DNA from: Candidatus Iainarchaeum sp.
GTDB taxonomy: Archaea; Iainarchaeota; Iainarchaeia; Iainarchaeales; JAZDEL01
Reading direction: 5' to 3'
Assembly: GCA_043808785.1 (NCBI GenBank)
Contig: JAZDEL010000003.1
Span: 30,001-62,000, forward strand
Length of the DNA: 32,000 nucleotides
Positions 4,963-17,101 of the stretch are shown piece after piece; position 1 is the stretch's first letter; every line of letters starts with the position of its first letter. Under the pieces are notes generated by a model. That model was not told the origin of the DNA. It made no database searches and was given only the letters and a program-made list of their open reading frames with translations. Made by a program: the position numbers and the translations under genes.

Positions 4963-5006
4963 AGTTTTTCCTCCTAAAGATAATTTTCCGTTTTTTTAAA
5001 TTAATC

Positions 5007-6761
5007 CTAAGCCCCCACCTCTACGGCGATTTCCGCCATTTTTTTAATTTCCAGCACAAGTTCCATCTCGCCCTCGCTCAGTGCGTCCCCCATTTCGCCA
5101 AGCCTCTCCAATTGCCTTGCTGGCAGGAAAGAATAAAGCTCGTCGTTCTCGAAAAGGTTCCTTCCGCAGGTTGCGCCCTTTATGCTTACAGCAACCTCCT
5201 GCCCCTGCTTTGCCTCATCTATGTCCTTTCCGTTGTCCTGCATCCCCTGCACCTTCCCTATTTTCTCCCCGCCCTTTTTCATCAGCTCCACGCCGTTCTT
5301 CAGCCTTCCTGCAAGAATCCTTACGCCGACAATTGCGGGTTTTGTGTTGTGGAATATGCACCCCGGCAAAACCTTCAGTTTCACAGGCATTACCGCGTGC
5401 TGCAGCTTCTCCTCCTTTGCGCTTTCCCTCTCAGCTGCAAGCCATTCATCATATCCCTCTATAAGCCTGTAAATTATTTTCTCGGAAAATACCTTCACAC
5501 CGCTTTTTTTTGCCTCCGCCCCCGCTGCTGCATCAACCTTAACATTGAATGCAAAAACAATTCCCTTGAACCTGTCGCTCGACCTTACAGCCTCGGCCTC
5601 CATTACGTCCCTCTTGCTCACTTCCCCTATGTCGGCTTTCCTCACCTTTATCCCGTGCCCCTCAAGGAGCTTAACAACAGCCTCGAGCGAGCCGAGCGCA
5701 TCAGCCTTAACAACAGGCCCCACTGCTTCGGTGTCAATCTTCGCGCCAAGCACTTCCTTCATTACCTCTTCCTCGCTTCCCGCGTATTTCACAAGGAGCG
5801 GAGAGCCTGCAAGAGCATCCTCAAGCATCGGCGCGGCAATCTTCACACCGCTCGCGGCAACAACGCCCTCAACCCCGCTGAATTTATCCTGCGGGTTCCT
5901 TATTTCCTGCAGGGGCTTGGGCACAAGCAGTGCGCGCACCTTTGTGCTTATCACCCCGTTCTTTCCCGCAAGCACGATTTCATCGCCAATCTTCAAAACG
6001 CCGTCATAAAGTATAACATCAACGGTTTTCCCGAGCCCCTTCTCTTCCTTTACCTCAAGAACAGTCCCGCGCCCCTTTGCGCTTTCCTCTATATGCAGCC
6101 TCTTGTCAAGGTATTTCTGCGAAAGCCCCGCAAGGAACATCAGAACCTCGGGAACCCCGTCCCCGCTCTTAGCGCACACAGGCACAATCGGAATCTCCTT
6201 TGTGAAATCCTTTACCCTGTCGAACCTCTCGCACCTGAACCCTTTCTTATGCATCGCGCCTATGAGTTCATATGTCTTTGTGTCGAGTTCCTCAAGGACA
6301 TCATCCCTCTGTTTCTGCATGCTGTCGCTCACAGCGCCCCCGCTGTTTTGCCAGCCGCGGATTGTGTCTATTTTATTCTGCGCGATTATGAAGGGCGTTT
6401 TGTAACTTTTCAAAACCTCGATTGCCTCATTGGTCTGCTGCTGCAGCCCCTTGTTAACATCAACAACAAGCACGGCCAAATCCGCAATGCTCCCCCCGCG
6501 CTTCCTGAGGTTTGCGAAAGCCTCGTGCCCCGGCGTGTCAATGAACAGCAGGCCGGGTATGCCTATGTTGAATTTGTATTTCTCAATAAGCGCGCCGCTG
6601 AGTTTCCTTATGGTTCCTATCGGCACTTCCGTTGCGCCGATGTGCTGTGTTATGCCGCCCGCTTCCTTCTCCGCGATTGCCGTGCCGCGGATCGCATCAA
6701 GAATTTTCGTTTTGCCGGCATCTACGTGCCCAAGCACCACAATTATCGGCTGCCTTATCAT
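5007..6761 (-). CDS. infB: Translation initiation factor aIF5B (IF-2 homologue)
   Basis: GTPase motifs VLGHVDAGKT, DTPGHEAF and NKID, with the four-domain length of aIF5B. I place the start at Met44 of the track ORF (MIRQPIIVVLGH, ATG at 6761) because the longer ORF overlaps dut. Confidence 0.95.
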   Translation of the reverse strand: MIRQPIIVVLGHVDAGKTKILDAIRGTAIAEKEAGGITQHIGATEVPIGTIRKLSGALIEKYKFNIGIPGLLFIDTPGHEAFANLRKRGGSIADLAVLVVDVNKGLQQQTNEAIEVLKSYKTPFIIAQNKIDTIRGWQNSGGAVSDSMQKQRDDVLEELDTKTYELIGAMHKKGFRCERFDRVKDFTKEIPIVPVCAKSGDGVPEVLMFLAGLSQKYLDKRLHIEESAKGRGTVLEVKEEKGLGKTVDVILYDGVLKIGDEIVLAGKNGVISTKVRALLVPKPLQEIRNPQDKFSGVEGVVAASGVKIAAPMLEDALAGSPLLVKYAGSEEEVMKEVLGAKIDTEAVGPVVKADALGSLEAVVKLLEGHGIKVRKADIGEVSKRDVMEAEAVRSSDRFKGIVFAFNVKVDAAAGAEAKKSGVKVFSEKIIYRLIEGYDEWLAAERESAKEEKLQHAVMPVKLKVLPGCIFHNTKPAIVGVRILAGRLKNGVELMKKGGEKIGKVQGMQDNGKDIDEAKQGQEVAVSIKGATCGRNLFENDELYSFLPARQLERLGEMGDALSEGEMELVLEIKKMAEIAVEVGA

Positions 6762-6792: not shown

Positions 6793-7230
6793 TTAAATCC
6801 CCGTAGAGCCAAATCCCCCCGCGTTCCTCGTGGTTCCGCCAAGTTCCTCCACAAACTCAAGTTCCGCTTCCTCCACCTTCGCGAACACAAGTTGCGCGAT
6901 TTTTTTCCCTTTTTCGACCTTGTACTGGGCGCCGCTGTGGTTCATGAGGATAACCCCCACTTCCCCGCGGTAGCACGAATCAACCGTGCCCGGCGTATTC
7001 AGCACGGTTATGCCGTGCTTCAGCGCAAGCCCGCTCTTCGGCCTCACCTGCGCCTCGTAGCCTTTAGGGAGCGCTATCTTAATTCCAGTGCCCACGAGTT
7101 TCCTTTCCCCAGCGTTCACTGTAACATCCTCGCGCGCGTAAAGGTCTATGCCCGAGTCACCTTCATGCTCGTACGCAAGTTTGGGTAAGCCGTCCCACAG
7201 CTTCTGGACTCTGACAGTTAATTTGCTCAT
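6793..7230 (-). CDS. dut: dUTP diphosphatase, classical homotrimeric Dut type
   Basis: 145 aa with the five Dut motifs (GDSGIDLYA, RPKSGLALKHGI, GTVDSCYRGEVGVILMN, KIAQLVF, GGFGSTG). GGAGGA lies 9 nt upstream of the ATG. Confidence 0.85.
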   Translation of the reverse strand: MSKLTVRVQKLWDGLPKLAYEHEGDSGIDLYAREDVTVNAGERKLVGTGIKIALPKGYEAQVRPKSGLALKHGITVLNTPGTVDSCYRGEVGVILMNHSGAQYKVEKGKKIAQLVFAKVEEAELEFVEELGGTTRNAGGFGSTGI

Positions 7231-7305
7231 TTATTTTCATCCTCCGCGCGGCAAACCCGCGAACCATCGCGCGAACCCACGCATTTCATTTATTTTCATC
7301 CTCCG
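7227..7305 (-). repeat. Exact 20-nt direct repeat (7227-7246 and 7286-7305) bracketing a 39-nt GC-rich insert at the ndk/dut junction
   Basis: Minus-strand CGGAGGATGAAAATAAATGA occurs twice, 59 nt apart. One copy is the ndk 3' end plus stop; the other is the dut SD plus ATG. Confidence 0.85.
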
Positions 7306-7750
7306 AATACATCCACCTTGCGGAACATTTCTCGTACTCATGCAGTTCCCCCGCTTTGAAGAACCTCTTTATTTCCTTCTCCGCCGTTTCTTTGCTGTCC
7401 GAAGCGTGCACCAAATTCGCCTGCGTGCTCACGGAGAAATCACCGCGGATTGTTCCCGCCTCCGCGTTCCTTCCGTTCGTCGCTCCGCACATTTTCCTCA
7501 CTACATCTGCCGCATCCTTGCCCTCGAGTGCGAGGAAAATGCAGGGCGCCCCTGACATGAACTTCACAAGCCCCGGAAAAAACGGCTTCTCCCTGTGGTG
7601 CGCGTAGTGCTCGCCCAGCATTTCCTTTCCCAGCGTTTCCATTTTAATTCCCGCGATTTTGAGGCCCTTTGCCTCGAACCTCGCGATTATTTTTCCCGCA
7701 AGGTCGCGGTTCATTGCGTCGGGCTTGATTATTACCAGAGTGCGCTCCAC
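7286..7750 (-). CDS. ndk: Nucleoside diphosphate kinase
   Basis: ERTLVIIKPDA...NLVHASDS (active-site His) is canonical Ndk. I favour the GTG at 7750, which is preceded by GGTGAT and gives the usual M-ERT N-terminus. Alternative starts: ATG at 7792, or 7882 (track ORF). Confidence 0.85.
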   Translation of the reverse strand: MERTLVIIKPDAMNRDLAGKIIARFEAKGLKIAGIKMETLGKEMLGEHYAHHREKPFFPGLVKFMSGAPCIFLALEGKDAADVVRKMCGATNGRNAEAGTIRGDFSVSTQANLVHASDSKETAEKEIKRFFKAGELHEYEKCSARWMYSEDENK

Positions 7751-13978: not shown

Positions 13979-14530
13979 CTATATTTCTTCAACCCCAACC
14001 GGGGCACAAACTATTGAAAACTCGCCGTTCGCCTGGTTGAAATATATCCTTACCTTTTCACCTTCGTGGAAACTTGGCGAGCCTTCCACCCATTCGCCGA
14101 TTGCCCCGACCATTCCGCCTGGCGTTACAATTTGAAGTTTATCTTCCGTAAACGGCGCCCCTTTGGCATAATTTTCAATTCTCATATCGGCATAGGTAAA
14201 AATAGAAGTTCCATCTTCATTCCGTTTGCTTTCCACTTTTTCAATAGTTCCTTCGATTATATAATCTGCTGTTTCGGTTATGTAAGATTTATTATCGCAG
14301 TCCCCTATCAATAGCCCACCTTCAGCCTTTACTATTATTTTGCCTTCTGGCAAAGGAGCCGCAGGTTTGCTTAAATCTTCACCATTTACCGGTATTTTGC
14401 CTTCCGGTAAGGGAGCCGCAGGTGTCACAGTTGTCGGAGTTGTCGTGCCACCGCCCGCCAAAACAACCAAGGCAGCGATGCAAACCGCAAGCGCAACCGC
14501 CGCAAATGCAACCAGCCAAAATTTCTTCAT
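13979..14530 (-). CDS. Membrane-anchored surface protein P2, diverged paralogue of the metzincin partner proteins
   Basis: 183 aa from ATG 14530 (MKKFWLVAFAAVALAVCIAALVVLAGGG). It has a Thr/Pro stalk, a 19-aa tandem repeat (PAAPLPEGKI...), and a C-terminal domain I could align by hand to P1a/P1b (AKG, GG.xG and GEKV blocks). Confidence 0.7.
   Translation of the reverse strand: MKKFWLVAFAAVALAVCIAALVVLAGGGTTTPTTVTPAAPLPEGKIPVNGEDLSKPAAPLPEGKIIVKAEGGLLIGDCDNKSYITETADYIIEGTIEKVESKRNEDGTSIFTYADMRIENYAKGAPFTEDKLQIVTPGGMVGAIGEWVEGSPSFHEGEKVRIYFNQANGEFSIVCAPVGVEEI
14337..14422 (-). repeat. 57-nt-period tandem repeat inside P2 (encodes PAAPLPEGKI twice)
   Basis: The 29-nt cores at 14337-14365 and 14394-14422 differ at 3 positions. 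Confidence 0.8.
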
Positions 14531-14585
14531 ACTCGTGCTTCCTATTAAGATGTTCCATACATACAAAAGAATGGAAAGAAAAGTT

Positions 14586-15242
14586 TCATTGGCCCGTTAC
14601 AGAGGCCAATACCTCTTCAAGCGGCAGTTTCTGGTATTGCTCCGGAACCTCGAGCCGCACAGCCTGATTGTCGCTTGTGATTGTGAATTTTCCGTGCTTC
14701 CAGCCCACAACGCTGTAATGCGCTCCGCCGTTGGTTGAGGTTTTATCAGAAGGGTCGTTTGTTGTGAGGAACAGCAGGACTTTTTCGCCGACTTCAAACT
14801 TAGCCGCGTCCTCAACATCCATTGAATGATCCCCGATTTTTCCCCCGAGGGTGCGGACAACAAGCCTTGACGGAACTGAACCTTTTGCCGTGCTGTCGAC
14901 CTGAATAATCGCATCAGTATAGATTTGGGCATCGCTTGCCACATCTGCGGGTCGCCCCCCATCGGGAGTATCCCACTTGCTGGGGAGAATCTCCGTCACA
15001 CGCCCGATAACCACGCTTTCCGAGTGTTTATTGAGGAAGGAAAGGTCCAATACTTCAGTGGACCACAGAGGGTAGATTGTCTTTGTCGTGGGCGATATTG
15101 ATTGTGTCGCCGTTGTTGTGGGTGACATTGGCGGTGTCGCCGTTGTCGGGCCGCCGCCCGCCAAAACAACCAAAGCGGCAATGCCTACAACAAGCGCAGC
15201 CGCCGCAAATCCAGCCAGCCAAACTTTCTTCATATTTTTCAT
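14586..15242 (-). CDS. Membrane-anchored metzincin-partner protein P1a (signal anchor, Thr/Pro stalk, unassigned ectodomain)
   Basis: 218 aa: MKNMKKVWLAGFAAAALVVGIAALVVLAGGG, then PTTATPPMSPTTTATQSISPTTKT, then a ~150-aa domain. AGGAGG lies 7 nt upstream of the ATG. About 80% identical to P1b by hand alignment. Confidence 0.75.
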   Translation of the reverse strand: MKNMKKVWLAGFAAAALVVGIAALVVLAGGGPTTATPPMSPTTTATQSISPTTKTIYPLWSTEVLDLSFLNKHSESVVIGRVTEILPSKWDTPDGGRPADVASDAQIYTDAIIQVDSTAKGSVPSRLVVRTLGGKIGDHSMDVEDAAKFEVGEKVLLFLTTNDPSDKTSTNGGAHYSVVGWKHGKFTITSDNQAVRLEVPEQYQKLPLEEVLASVTGQ

Positions 15243-15257
15243 ATATGTGCCTCCTGC

Positions 15258-15830
15258 TCAGGCCGTCCCATAAATATATTTAATGCCCGCTATGTCGTCG
15301 GAGTGTAATGTTCTCTTCTTTGTCTCGCCCGTGCTGATGTAACCATACATTGTCTTTTCGGTGTCGGACGAGCCGTAAAGGTCGTTCAATTTCAACCAGT
15401 GGCCAAACTCATGCGTGGCTGCGTTTTGAACATCATAATAACCGCTTTGGCCGGTTGTAGACCATGAAACGTTATAGCTGAAGTTTGTTAAAACCTTGTA
15501 AATTCTATAAGATTGTGCACTTATTAGTGTTTGGGCTATTTGCCCGGCAGGAAGGCTTGCCTTGCCTATGATGTCCAACGTCGTCGACCTTTTGGTAAAG
15601 GCAAATTTTGACCCGGCATTATTCCAGGCAGCGGCGGCACTATTTATGGAATTGTACCAACTTGCTGGTATTGAACCACTCCAATAATAGGGTACCCCCC
15701 ATTTATCCGCACCGTAACTGTATGCACTGACAGGCGCCGATGCAATCACACAAAATAGCGCCAGTAATAACAGCGCGCCCGCGCCCCGCCCGATTTTTCT
15801 TCTATTCATGATTTCCTCCGAGTGGCTCAT
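15258..15830 (-). CDS. Secreted snapalysin/matrixin-like mini-metzincin M1a
   Basis: 190 aa. Signal peptide ...LLLLALFCVIASAPVSA|YSY; zinc motif HEFGHWLKLNDLY; Met-turn TMYGY; AAAAWNNAGSKFAF helix. The ATG overlaps the P1b stop (ATGA). An alternative start is Met8 (15809). Confidence 0.8.
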   Translation of the reverse strand: MSHSEEIMNRRKIGRGAGALLLLALFCVIASAPVSAYSYGADKWGVPYYWSGSIPASWYNSINSAAAAWNNAGSKFAFTKRSTTLDIIGKASLPAGQIAQTLISAQSYRIYKVLTNFSYNVSWSTTGQSGYYDVQNAATHEFGHWLKLNDLYGSSDTEKTMYGYISTGETKKRTLHSDDIAGIKYIYGTA

Positions 15831-16483
15831 TTGCCCGTTACCGCACCTAATACCTCTTCAAGGGGCAATCTCTGGTATTGCTCCGGAACATTGGGCCTCA
15901 CGGCAAAGCTGTCGTCCGTGATTGCGAATCTTCCGTGCATCCCGGCGACCACCCAGTAATGCGCCCCGCCATTGCTTGTGGTGTTATCGGACGGGTCGTT
16001 TGTCGTGAGGAACAGCAGCACCTTTTCGCCGACTTTAAACTCGGCCTCGCCCTCCGCAATCATGCCATCGTCCCCAACCTGCCCGCCAAGTGTGCGGACA
16101 ACCACACTGGAGGGAACGGAGCCTTTCACGACCTTGTCAACCTGAATAATTATATCCGTATAGATGGAGGCATCGCTTGCCACATCTGTGGGCCGCCCCC
16201 CATCGGGAGTATCCCACTTGCTGGGGAGAATCTCCGTCACACGCCCGATAACCACGCTTTCCGAGTGTTTATTGAGGAAGGAAAGGTCCAATACTTCAGT
16301 GGACCACGTGGGTGAGATTGTCTTTGTCGTGGGCGATATTGATTGTGTCGCCGTTGTTGTGGGTGACATTGGCGGTGTCGCCGTTGTCGGGTCGCCACTT
16401 GTAAAAGCAAATAAAGCGGCAATGCCGACTACAAGCGCGGCCGCCGCAAATCCAGCCAGCCAAACTTTCTTCATATTTTTCAT
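15827..16483 (-). CDS. Membrane-anchored metzincin-partner protein P1b
   Basis: 218 aa with the same architecture as P1a. Its start and stop are offset exactly 1241 nt from those of P1a. Confidence 0.75.
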   Translation of the reverse strand: MKNMKKVWLAGFAAAALVVGIAALFAFTSGDPTTATPPMSPTTTATQSISPTTKTISPTWSTEVLDLSFLNKHSESVVIGRVTEILPSKWDTPDGGRPTDVASDASIYTDIIIQVDKVVKGSVPSSVVVRTLGGQVGDDGMIAEGEAEFKVGEKVLLFLTTNDPSDNTTSNGGAHYWVVAGMHGRFAITDDSFAVRPNVPEQYQRLPLEEVLGAVTGK

Positions 16484-16498
16484 ATATGTGCCTCCTGC

Positions 16499-17071
16499 TC
16501 AGGCCGTCCCATAAATATATTTAATGCCCGCTATGTCGTCGGAGTGTAATGTTCTCTTCTTTGTATTGCCCGTGCTGGTGTAACCATACATTGTCTTTTC
16601 GCTGTTAGACGAGCCGTAAAGGTCGTTCAATTTCAACCAGTGGCCAAACTCATGCGTGGCTTCGTTTTGAACATCATAATAACCGCTTTGGCCGGTTGTA
16701 GACCATTGGTAGTTAGAGTTGAACGTTATTTTAGCCTTGTAAATTCTATGATCTGTGTCTGCATACGTTGTTGACATGGCTACTGTCCCGGCAGGAAGGC
16801 TTTGCTTGTACAGAAAGTTCAACGTCGTCCCAGCTGTCGCAGATTTGACAAAGGCAAATTTTGACCCGGCATTATTCCAGGCAGCGGCGGCACTATTTAT
16901 GGAATTGTACCAACTTGTTGGTATTGAACTATTCCAATAATATGATGCCCCCCATTTCCACCCACTGTAACTGTATGCACTAACAGGCACCGATGCAATT
17001 AAGCAAAATAGTGCCAATAATAGCAGTGCGCCCGTTTTCCTTCCGATGTTTCCATTTCCCATGAAACTCAT
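16499..17071 (-). CDS. Secreted snapalysin/matrixin-like mini-metzincin M1b
   Basis: 190 aa. Signal peptide ...LLLLALFCLIASVPVSA|YSY, with HEFGHWLKLNDLY and TMYGY motifs as in M1a. First gene of the cassette. Confidence 0.8.
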   Translation of the reverse strand: MSFMGNGNIGRKTGALLLLALFCLIASVPVSAYSYSGWKWGASYYWNSSIPTSWYNSINSAAAAWNNAGSKFAFVKSATAGTTLNFLYKQSLPAGTVAMSTTYADTDHRIYKAKITFNSNYQWSTTGQSGYYDVQNEATHEFGHWLKLNDLYGSSNSEKTMYGYTSTGNTKKRTLHSDDIAGIKYIYGTA

Positions 17072-17094: not shown

Positions 17095-17101
17095 ATTTAA
17101 A
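17095..17101 (-). promoter_or_regulatory. Candidate TATA box (TTTAAAT) for the metzincin cassette
   Basis: Minus strand reads AAGTTTAAATGTCAAATCATACTACATAAATAG-ATG. The box centre is about 27 nt upstream of ATG 17071, which suggests a leaderless transcript. Confidence 0.45.

Follow-up and report, generated by a model that had tools for sequence, protein, structure and literature searches.

A 32,000-nt stretch of contig JAZDEL010000003.1 from Candidatus Iainarchaeum sp., hereafter the window, encodes two secreted metzincins of family M10 (M1 and M2), each followed directly by the gene of a membrane-anchored partner protein (P1b and P1a, respectively), and one further anchored protein, P2. The strongest result of our analysis is that this pairing of an M10 metzincin with its partner is conserved. 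It recurs in archaea and bacteria, as adjacent genes and as fusion proteins, which bears out the link to the neighboring metzincins that an initial annotation of the sequence had suspected. The P1 ectodomain (~160 residues) is predicted to adopt the OB-barrel-plus-helices fold found in NTR modules and in tissue inhibitors of metalloproteinases (TIMPs). We lean towards the interpretation that each P1 protein is a surface-tethered cognate inhibitor or latency partner of the metzincin encoded upstream. The window is an archaeal, duplicated example resembling a known and barely characterized module, as the pairing of a metzincin with a TIMP-fold protein is not unprecedented, having been described from Listeria in 2021.

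The five genes all run on the minus strand and lie between rpsB and a Memo-like gene, in the order M2, P1a, M1, P1b and P2 (all coordinates are positions within the window unless a locus is named). M2 (16499-17071) and M1 (15258-15830) each encode 190 residues and the two proteins are 72% identical, while P1a (15827-16483) and P1b (14586-15242) each encode 218 residues and share 80% identity over 218 aa. A gap of 15 nt separates M2 from P1a and likewise M1 from P1b; P1a and M1 overlap by 4 nt, and P2 (13979-14530, 183 aa) begins 55 nt after P1b. Metzincin and partner form a two-gene unit that is present in duplicate at 14586-17071 with a period of ~1241-1253 nt. The P1 proteins consist of a hydrophobic N-terminal anchor, a Thr/Pro-rich stalk and the ectodomain, which spans residues ~58-218 in P1a. 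The stalk, already recognized in the initial annotation, is encoded by 30-nt tandem repeats at 15083-15148 in P1b and 16324-16389 in P1a.

Both metzincins pass the cut-off of the Pfam family PF00413 (24 bits), M2 with 42.1 bits (E = 1.1e-10) and M1 with 37.5 bits (E = 2.8e-9), and are similar to matrix metalloproteinases (MMPs). They carry a signal peptide ending in VSA/YSY (PVSA/YSY in M2), where the slash marks the cleavage site. Since the catalytic domain begins ~20 residues past this site, M1 and M2 have no prodomain. A cysteine-switch prodomain was considered and rejected, as there is no room for it between signal peptide and catalytic domain. The zinc-binding motif of both enzymes is HEFGHWLKLND and the Met-turn is TMY. 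This is a variant of HExxHxxGxxH/D in which Lys replaces the canonical Gly and Asp serves as third ligand. The archaeal clade has the motif HE[FL]GHWLxLx[D/H]. Metzincins paired with close P1 homologs in Methanoperedens, Methanosarcina and Hydrothermarchaeota are likewise devoid of the canonical Gly of HExxHxxGxxH, and their third-ligand position holds Asp, His or even Glu/Asn. The canonical motif is kept in the more distant bacterial fused and Firmicutes versions.

Wherever upstream sequence was available among the first loci compared (L001-L007 and L009-L011), the gene immediately upstream of the P1 homolog is an M10 gene, although the neighborhoods of these loci are otherwise unrelated. A scan of GTDB species genomes returned 23 loci, which we sorted by local hidden Markov model searches. 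M10 is encoded directly upstream of the partner in 13 of them, including Methanoperedens, Methanosarcina spp., Hydrothermarchaeota and a metagenome-assembled genome (MAG) of Actinomycetota, and directly downstream in one (L031, Calditrichota). In four more (L035 and L037-L039, from Thermoanaerobaculia and Binatia) M10 and the domain occupy a single open reading frame (ORF), and two are cut by a contig end. Altogether M10 is adjacent or fused in 18 of the 21 informative genome loci, and the same holds for each of the 12 further loci where sequence ahead of the partner gene is available; the loci span two domains of life. Genomes of Brevibacillus, Thermanaeromonas and Paenibacillus show the same order of M10 followed by partner. 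P1b is 33-38% identical to the partners from Brevibacillus (E = 3e-20) and Thermanaeromonas (E = 2e-19).

Fusion proteins exist in both domain orders, and six of the 144 top representatives of the family carry PF00413 themselves. The archaeal fusions P0106, P0113 and P0164 are built as M10, linker and domain. In the bacterial fusions (L035, L037-L039) the order is signal peptide, domain and M10, which places the domain at the position of a propeptide. Here, predicted signal-peptidase cleavage leaves the segment TT[IF][VI][ML]P right before the first helix. The metzincin-partner unit is widespread and probably mobile.

Four loci deserve a separate remark. In an Actinomycetota MAG (L030, 3234-3821) and in 'Subteraquimicrobium' (L032, 3283-3881), the M10 gene preceding the partner is broken into two ORFs, which could reflect a frameshift, a pseudogene or a sequencing error. 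The Thermanaeromonas pair (L043, 38-1450) adjoins a group II intron reverse transcriptase, and this neighbor fits the association with mobile elements reported for Firmicutes pairs. An Eubacteriales MAG (L034, 3054-4504) carries two tandem copies of the partner gene with no M10 within 4 kb.

P1a, P1b and P2 have no meaningful match in Pfam (none at E<=1) or NCBIfam. The AlphaFold2 model of P1b, built from 20 homologs, contains a confident domain from residue ~60 to 218 with block values of the predicted local distance difference test (pLDDT) mostly between 80 and 96. From N- to C-terminus it comprises two short helices, a beta-barrel and a C-terminal helix, and the loop between strands beta1 and beta2 is conserved (PSxWNTPDG). 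P2 was modeled independently on its own family and reached a domain pLDDT of ~90. In both predicted structures the order of secondary-structure elements fits a five-stranded OB barrel with flanking N- and C-terminal helices, in agreement with the small all-beta, OB/barrel-like domain proposed from the sequence pattern. Foldseek searches of the protein data bank (PDB) with P1b gave the agrin NtA domain as best match (E = 1e-4), with a TM-score of 0.63 when normalized by target length and 0.40 when normalized by the full-length query. The C345C domain of complement C3, TIMP-2, TIMP-1, the NTR modules of PCOLCE and meteorin and a hookworm netrin-like protein were also retrieved. The P2 model yielded the same set (NtA, TIMP-1, C3, the NTR module of a meteorin-like protein, TIMP-2), and generic OB folds rank below the NTR modules that head both lists. 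The impression of an NTR/TIMP-type module noted at the outset thus holds at the level of the predicted fold, by the structural comparison that had been proposed along with it. No S-layer or adhesin domain was matched, and such an identity was rejected. A Foldseek search of viral structures (BFVD) had no significant hits.

Fold-level resemblance together with a functionally suggestive partner is the extent of our claim. P1 and P2 are not classed as TIMPs because the defining TIMP features and a sequence link are both absent. Like TIMPs and NTR modules (MEROPS I35; PF00965, PF01759 and, for NtA, PF03146), they have a predicted OB barrel with flanking helices, and the domain is paired with an MMP-like metzincin, as in the animal MMP/TIMP system. 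Unlike TIMPs, they occur in prokaryotic hosts, carry an anchor and stalk before the domain, show no detectable sequence or profile similarity and have neither the CxC N-terminus nor the six cysteines that form three disulfides; P1 is entirely free of cysteine, and the P2 subfamily has two invariant ones, a single pair in P2. Cys78 of P2 is internal. The Pfam NtA family matched only one of 144 relatives (E = 2e-4, in a scan with an E-value limit of 1e-3).

Several observations weigh against an inhibitory role of P1. When the P1 profile was compared by hhalign with the N-domains of TIMP-1 to -4, using a TIMP alignment validated against PDB entries, the probability was 0.06%, and sequence homology to TIMPs was therefore rejected as undemonstrable, as the initial annotation had itself conceded. 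Profile searches of PDB sequences with our alignments A2 and A5 found nothing relevant. The Foldseek matches have modest E-values (1e-4 to 1e-2), and OB folds are known to arise repeatedly through convergence. TIMPs inhibit through a free N-terminal Cys1 that lies beside the barrel and chelates the catalytic zinc with its alpha-amino and carbonyl groups. P1a and P1b are cysteine-free, as had been pointed out for the N-terminus, and an anchor and a ~30-aa stalk precede the domain. A TIMP-style free N-terminus is unsupported for the unprocessed P1 proteins and is seen only in the bacterial fusions, while fusions with the domain C-terminal to the protease are ill-suited to a wedge of this kind. 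Three of the 23 genome loci (L033, L034 and L036) have no M10 up to 4 kb on each side, and no protease is adjacent to genes of the P2 subfamily in the three distinct contexts examined. Finally, the Listeria protein Tim behaved as a substrate or effector of its metzincin, and inhibition was not demonstrated there (PMC8235301).

Some of these observations would also be expected if the family consisted of generic surface OB proteins, for instance glycan or S-layer binders, without a functional tie to metzincins, so that the likeness to NTR modules would be convergence and the adjacency incidental. The loci without M10, the missing sequence similarity to TIMPs and the occurrence of the P2 subfamily in unrelated settings (leu operons, Chloroflexi) without a nearby protease all point in this direction. 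Such a reading leaves aside that M10 is adjacent or fused in nearly all informative loci despite their varied neighborhoods, and that the two domains are fused in either order. We consider it highly improbable, and for P1a and P1b it is already very unlikely.

The closest described counterpart is Mtz-Tim of Listeria monocytogenes (LMRG_00713/00714; accession of Tim, AEO06250.1), in which the gene of a secreted metzincin is followed by that of a lipoprotein with a TIMP-like structure predicted by Phyre2 (Boichis et al. 2021, PMC8235301). That study's authors could find no previous account of TIMP-like proteins in bacteria, and they described similar pairs in Bacillus, Brevibacillus, Lysinibacillus and Clostridium (PMC8235301). 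Judged from this published description, the pair in the window resembles Mtz-Tim in architecture. In both, the gene of a small secreted metzincin is directly followed by that of its partner in the same orientation, too closely for the latter to have its own promoter (15-nt gaps in the window), and the partner combines an N-terminal anchor, a linker (~50 aa in Tim) and a predicted TIMP-like fold. Moreover, P1b is homologous to the partners of the Firmicutes pairs from Brevibacillus, Paenibacillus and Thermanaeromonas. The window differs from Mtz-Tim in being archaeal, in having a hydrophobic anchor and Thr/Pro stalk instead of a lipobox, in the variant metzincin motif HEFGHWLKLND without Gly and with Asp as third ligand, and in the tandem duplication of the unit with its extra chimeric member P2. 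It also lies among housekeeping genes, outside any prophage and without control by a cI/cro switch.

An anchored OB-fold inhibitor is known from Tannerella forsythia, where potempin A (PotA) is co-transcribed with the MMP-like karilysin; experiments showed that it inhibits karilysin and protects the producer's own surface (PMC9890683). PotA and P1 have in common that an anchored single-domain OB-fold protein is encoded with an MMP-like metzincin. PotA differs in its length of 98 residues, in the position of its gene upstream of that of the peptidase and in its loop-based, 'bilobal' mode of inhibition. No potempin was among the best 50 Foldseek matches of P1b or P2 (the potempin content of the library was unchecked). 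Serralysin inhibitors (MEROPS I38: AprI, Inh) are small beta-barrel proteins encoded with a bacterial metzincin, and their N-terminal segment enters the active site. Unlike P1, AprI and Inh are eight-stranded, periplasmic and not anchored by a stalk. The Listeria study also cites the serralysin-inhibitor pair of Pseudomonas (PMC8235301). A 2025 analysis of MMPs in Methanosarcinaceae mentions no regulator or partner (PMC12587646).

If P1 is an inhibitor or latency partner, the following course of events can be envisaged. P1a and P1b would be extracellular and held at the membrane by the hydrophobic anchor and a probably glycosylated Thr/Pro stalk, and each would belong, as cognate partner, to the prodomain-less M10 metzincin whose gene immediately precedes its own. 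The tethered domain would bind the co-secreted metzincin at the cell surface and block or delay its activity, and this block would supply the latency and self-protection normally given by a prodomain. The protease would probably clip its partner in the stalk, by analogy with Mtz, which clips Tim.

That same cleavage could be the whole purpose of the pair. In this case P1 would be inactive as long as it is tethered, and the metzincin would cut the stalk and release an OB domain that acts on the envelope or on neighboring cells, and P1 would not inhibit at all. Mtz does cleave Tim at ~residues 49-55, and the Listeria phenotypes require Tim together with catalytically active Mtz (PMC8235301). The same architecture of anchor, ~20-60-aa linker and domain is found here. 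Many relatives have a conserved [DE]-P-[IL]-x-[IFV] segment before the domain, which fits the cleavage preference of MMPs (Pro in P3, a hydrophobic side chain in P1'). The segment need not be a cleavage site, as it is modeled as a strand of the fold in P2. A released effector also leaves unexplained the fusions in which the domain sits between signal peptide and catalytic domain, and why the proteases have no other latency device. We regard this explanation as unlikely, though as the likeliest of the alternatives to inhibition.

A further reading takes the anchored OB domain as a steric chaperone of the exported metzincin or as a scaffold that keeps the metzincin at the surface without lasting inhibition. 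Lif foldases are steric chaperones encoded beside lipases, and the gene order, the N-terminal anchor with linker and the missing propeptide of our system resemble lipase-foldase operons. Fusions with the domain at the propeptide position exist, and propeptides often serve as both foldase and inhibitor. Nevertheless, the predicted fold matches inhibitor and binding modules of NTR type and not known foldases, and fusions with the domain at the C-terminus are atypical of an intramolecular chaperone. We judge a foldase or docking function to be slightly less probable still than a released effector, and retain the surface-tethered inhibitor or latency partner as our preferred interpretation.

The family to which these ectodomains belong is very large. 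Sensitive sequence searches, which the initial annotation had proposed for defining its range, place it in archaea as well as bacteria. With the ectodomains as query, an exhaustive profile search gave 6,856 clusters at 50% identity with E<=1e-3, a count that includes the P2 subfamily, and 938 clusters with E<=1e-10. Every named cluster member is labeled 'hypothetical protein'. In most members a transmembrane or lipobox anchor is followed by a linker of 20-60 residues, the conserved [DE]P[IL]x[IFV] strand and finally the domain. A further homolog search with alignment A5 returned 17 matches, most of them already known. Searches by tblastn with M1 and P1b against phage genomes, and with M2 and the P1b ectodomain against plasmids, found only M10 genes of Streptomyces.

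P2 was initially taken as a third paralog of P1a and P1b. P1a and P1b are indeed paralogous and P2 is a distant homolog, while the protein as a whole is a chimera in which the local anchor carries an ectodomain of another subfamily. By BLASTP this ectodomain matches P1b over 56 aa (E = 5e-6), spanning three of the four sequence blocks that had been proposed as shared. The comparison of a P1-only profile (A6) with a P2-family profile (A4) by hhalign (98.4% probability, E = 7.6e-15) aligns the first block too. The anchor is shared at the nucleotide level as well, as had been noticed. The anchor-coding 5' end of P2 (14432-14531, minus strand) belongs to a repeat family at the DNA level and over 100 nt is 85% identical to 15135-15234 in P1b and 75% identical to 16376-16475 in P1a. 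Next to it lies the 57-nt tandem duplication (14320-14423, minus strand) that encodes the previously described 19-aa repeat PAAPLPEGKI...; its units at 14320-14366 and 14377-14423 are 83% identical, and it repeats the conserved first strand of the P2-type domain.

The ectodomain of P2 is 56-79% identical to ~80 proteins, with named sources in Patescibacteria, Chloroflexi/Dehalococcoidia, Aenigmarchaeota and WOR-3. They belong to a separate, much larger subfamily, in which Cys78 and Cys175 (P2 numbering) are invariant. Among its bacterial members lipoboxes are frequent, and some carry C-terminal DUF333 or eight-cysteine modules. On contigs of Chloroflexi type, P2-subfamily genes lie inside leucine-biosynthesis operons. 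In L012-L014 and L016 (~5000-6400), genes for a P2-family lipoprotein, a 125-aa protein of unknown function and a DUF3795 protein stand between leuC-like and leuD-like genes.

The origin of P2 can be read from the syntenic contig L008, where the gene P0003 occupies the position of P2 and has an ectodomain of P1 type (13979-14562 of the window compared with L008 1-846). L008 and the window are homologous in the 3' end of a P1b ortholog, the 32 nt upstream of P2, the P2 anchor and the sequence from the Memo-like gene onward. Within P2, the anchor matches L008 with 78% DNA identity down to ~14415, the blastn breakpoint, and this chimera junction coincides with the 57-nt duplication. Judged from these alignments, P2 is the resident third copy, in which a distantly related domain of the two-cysteine subfamily has taken the place of the original ectodomain, because the P1-type gene P0003 shares its position, 5' flank and anchor. 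P2 thereby illustrates cleanly how an ectodomain can be exchanged on a membrane anchor that stays in place. In Methanoperedens, a P2-like gene that is 39% identical to P2 (L004, 8205-8864; the same gene is seen in L018 at 7085-7744) lies ~3 kb downstream of an M10-P1 pair, with three unannotated genes between. The co-location of the P1 and P2 subfamilies is perhaps not accidental.

Upstream of M2, the TATA-box-like sequence TTTAAAT (17095-17101, minus strand), read from the sequence 24-30 nt before the start codon, may be the promoter of an M2-P1a-M1-P1b unit. A hairpin followed by a T-rich tract extends across the P1b stop codon (14563-14611, minus strand). As a consensus match it is weak evidence for a terminator, which may give P2 a separate transcript. 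A ~30-nt element bearing the hairpin (14563-14593) recurs downstream of P0003 in L008 (1094-1123) with 93.5% identity and could represent either a terminator common to both loci or a small repeat element.

The five genes are flanked by genes for RpsB, a Memo-like protein, TrmB and a glutamyl-tRNA synthetase (GluRS), and the surrounding genes are archaeal (GluRS, ribosomal proteins, RpoN). With housekeeping genes as neighbors, the locus in the window does not lie in a prophage or mobile element. The P1 proteins and the metzincins have their nearest relatives mostly in Candidatus Methanoperedens and Methanosarcina. GC content is 0.44 in M2 and 0.43 in the P2 ectodomain compared with 0.53 for the window, and M1 is also low. 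Across the cassette (13979-17071) both GC and GC at third codon positions are below those of the flanking housekeeping genes, which is compatible with horizontal acquisition.

To our knowledge, TIMPs and NTR modules have been treated as animal inventions, and prokaryotic MMP-like enzymes are usually discussed without any regulator. Here, in archaea and bacteria alike, M10 metzincins turn out to be genetically coupled, as neighbors or fusions, to a very large and unannotated prokaryotic family that is predicted to have an NTR/TIMP fold. It is conceivable, though we think it doubtful, that an MMP-like metzincin and an NTR/TIMP-fold regulator form an ancient mobile prokaryotic module, present in thousands of lineages as separate genes or fusions, from which the animal TIMP/NTR domain descends, having arrived or left together with the MMP catalytic domain. 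Transfers between the domains of life have already been inferred for MMPs (PMC12587646). If this were true, the regulation of MMPs by TIMPs would predate animals. Should the partner proteins be inhibitors, they would explain how prodomain-less secreted metzincins are controlled and would be a rich source of MMP-binding scaffolds that lack cysteine. It would then also become possible to test where the MMP/TIMP system came from.

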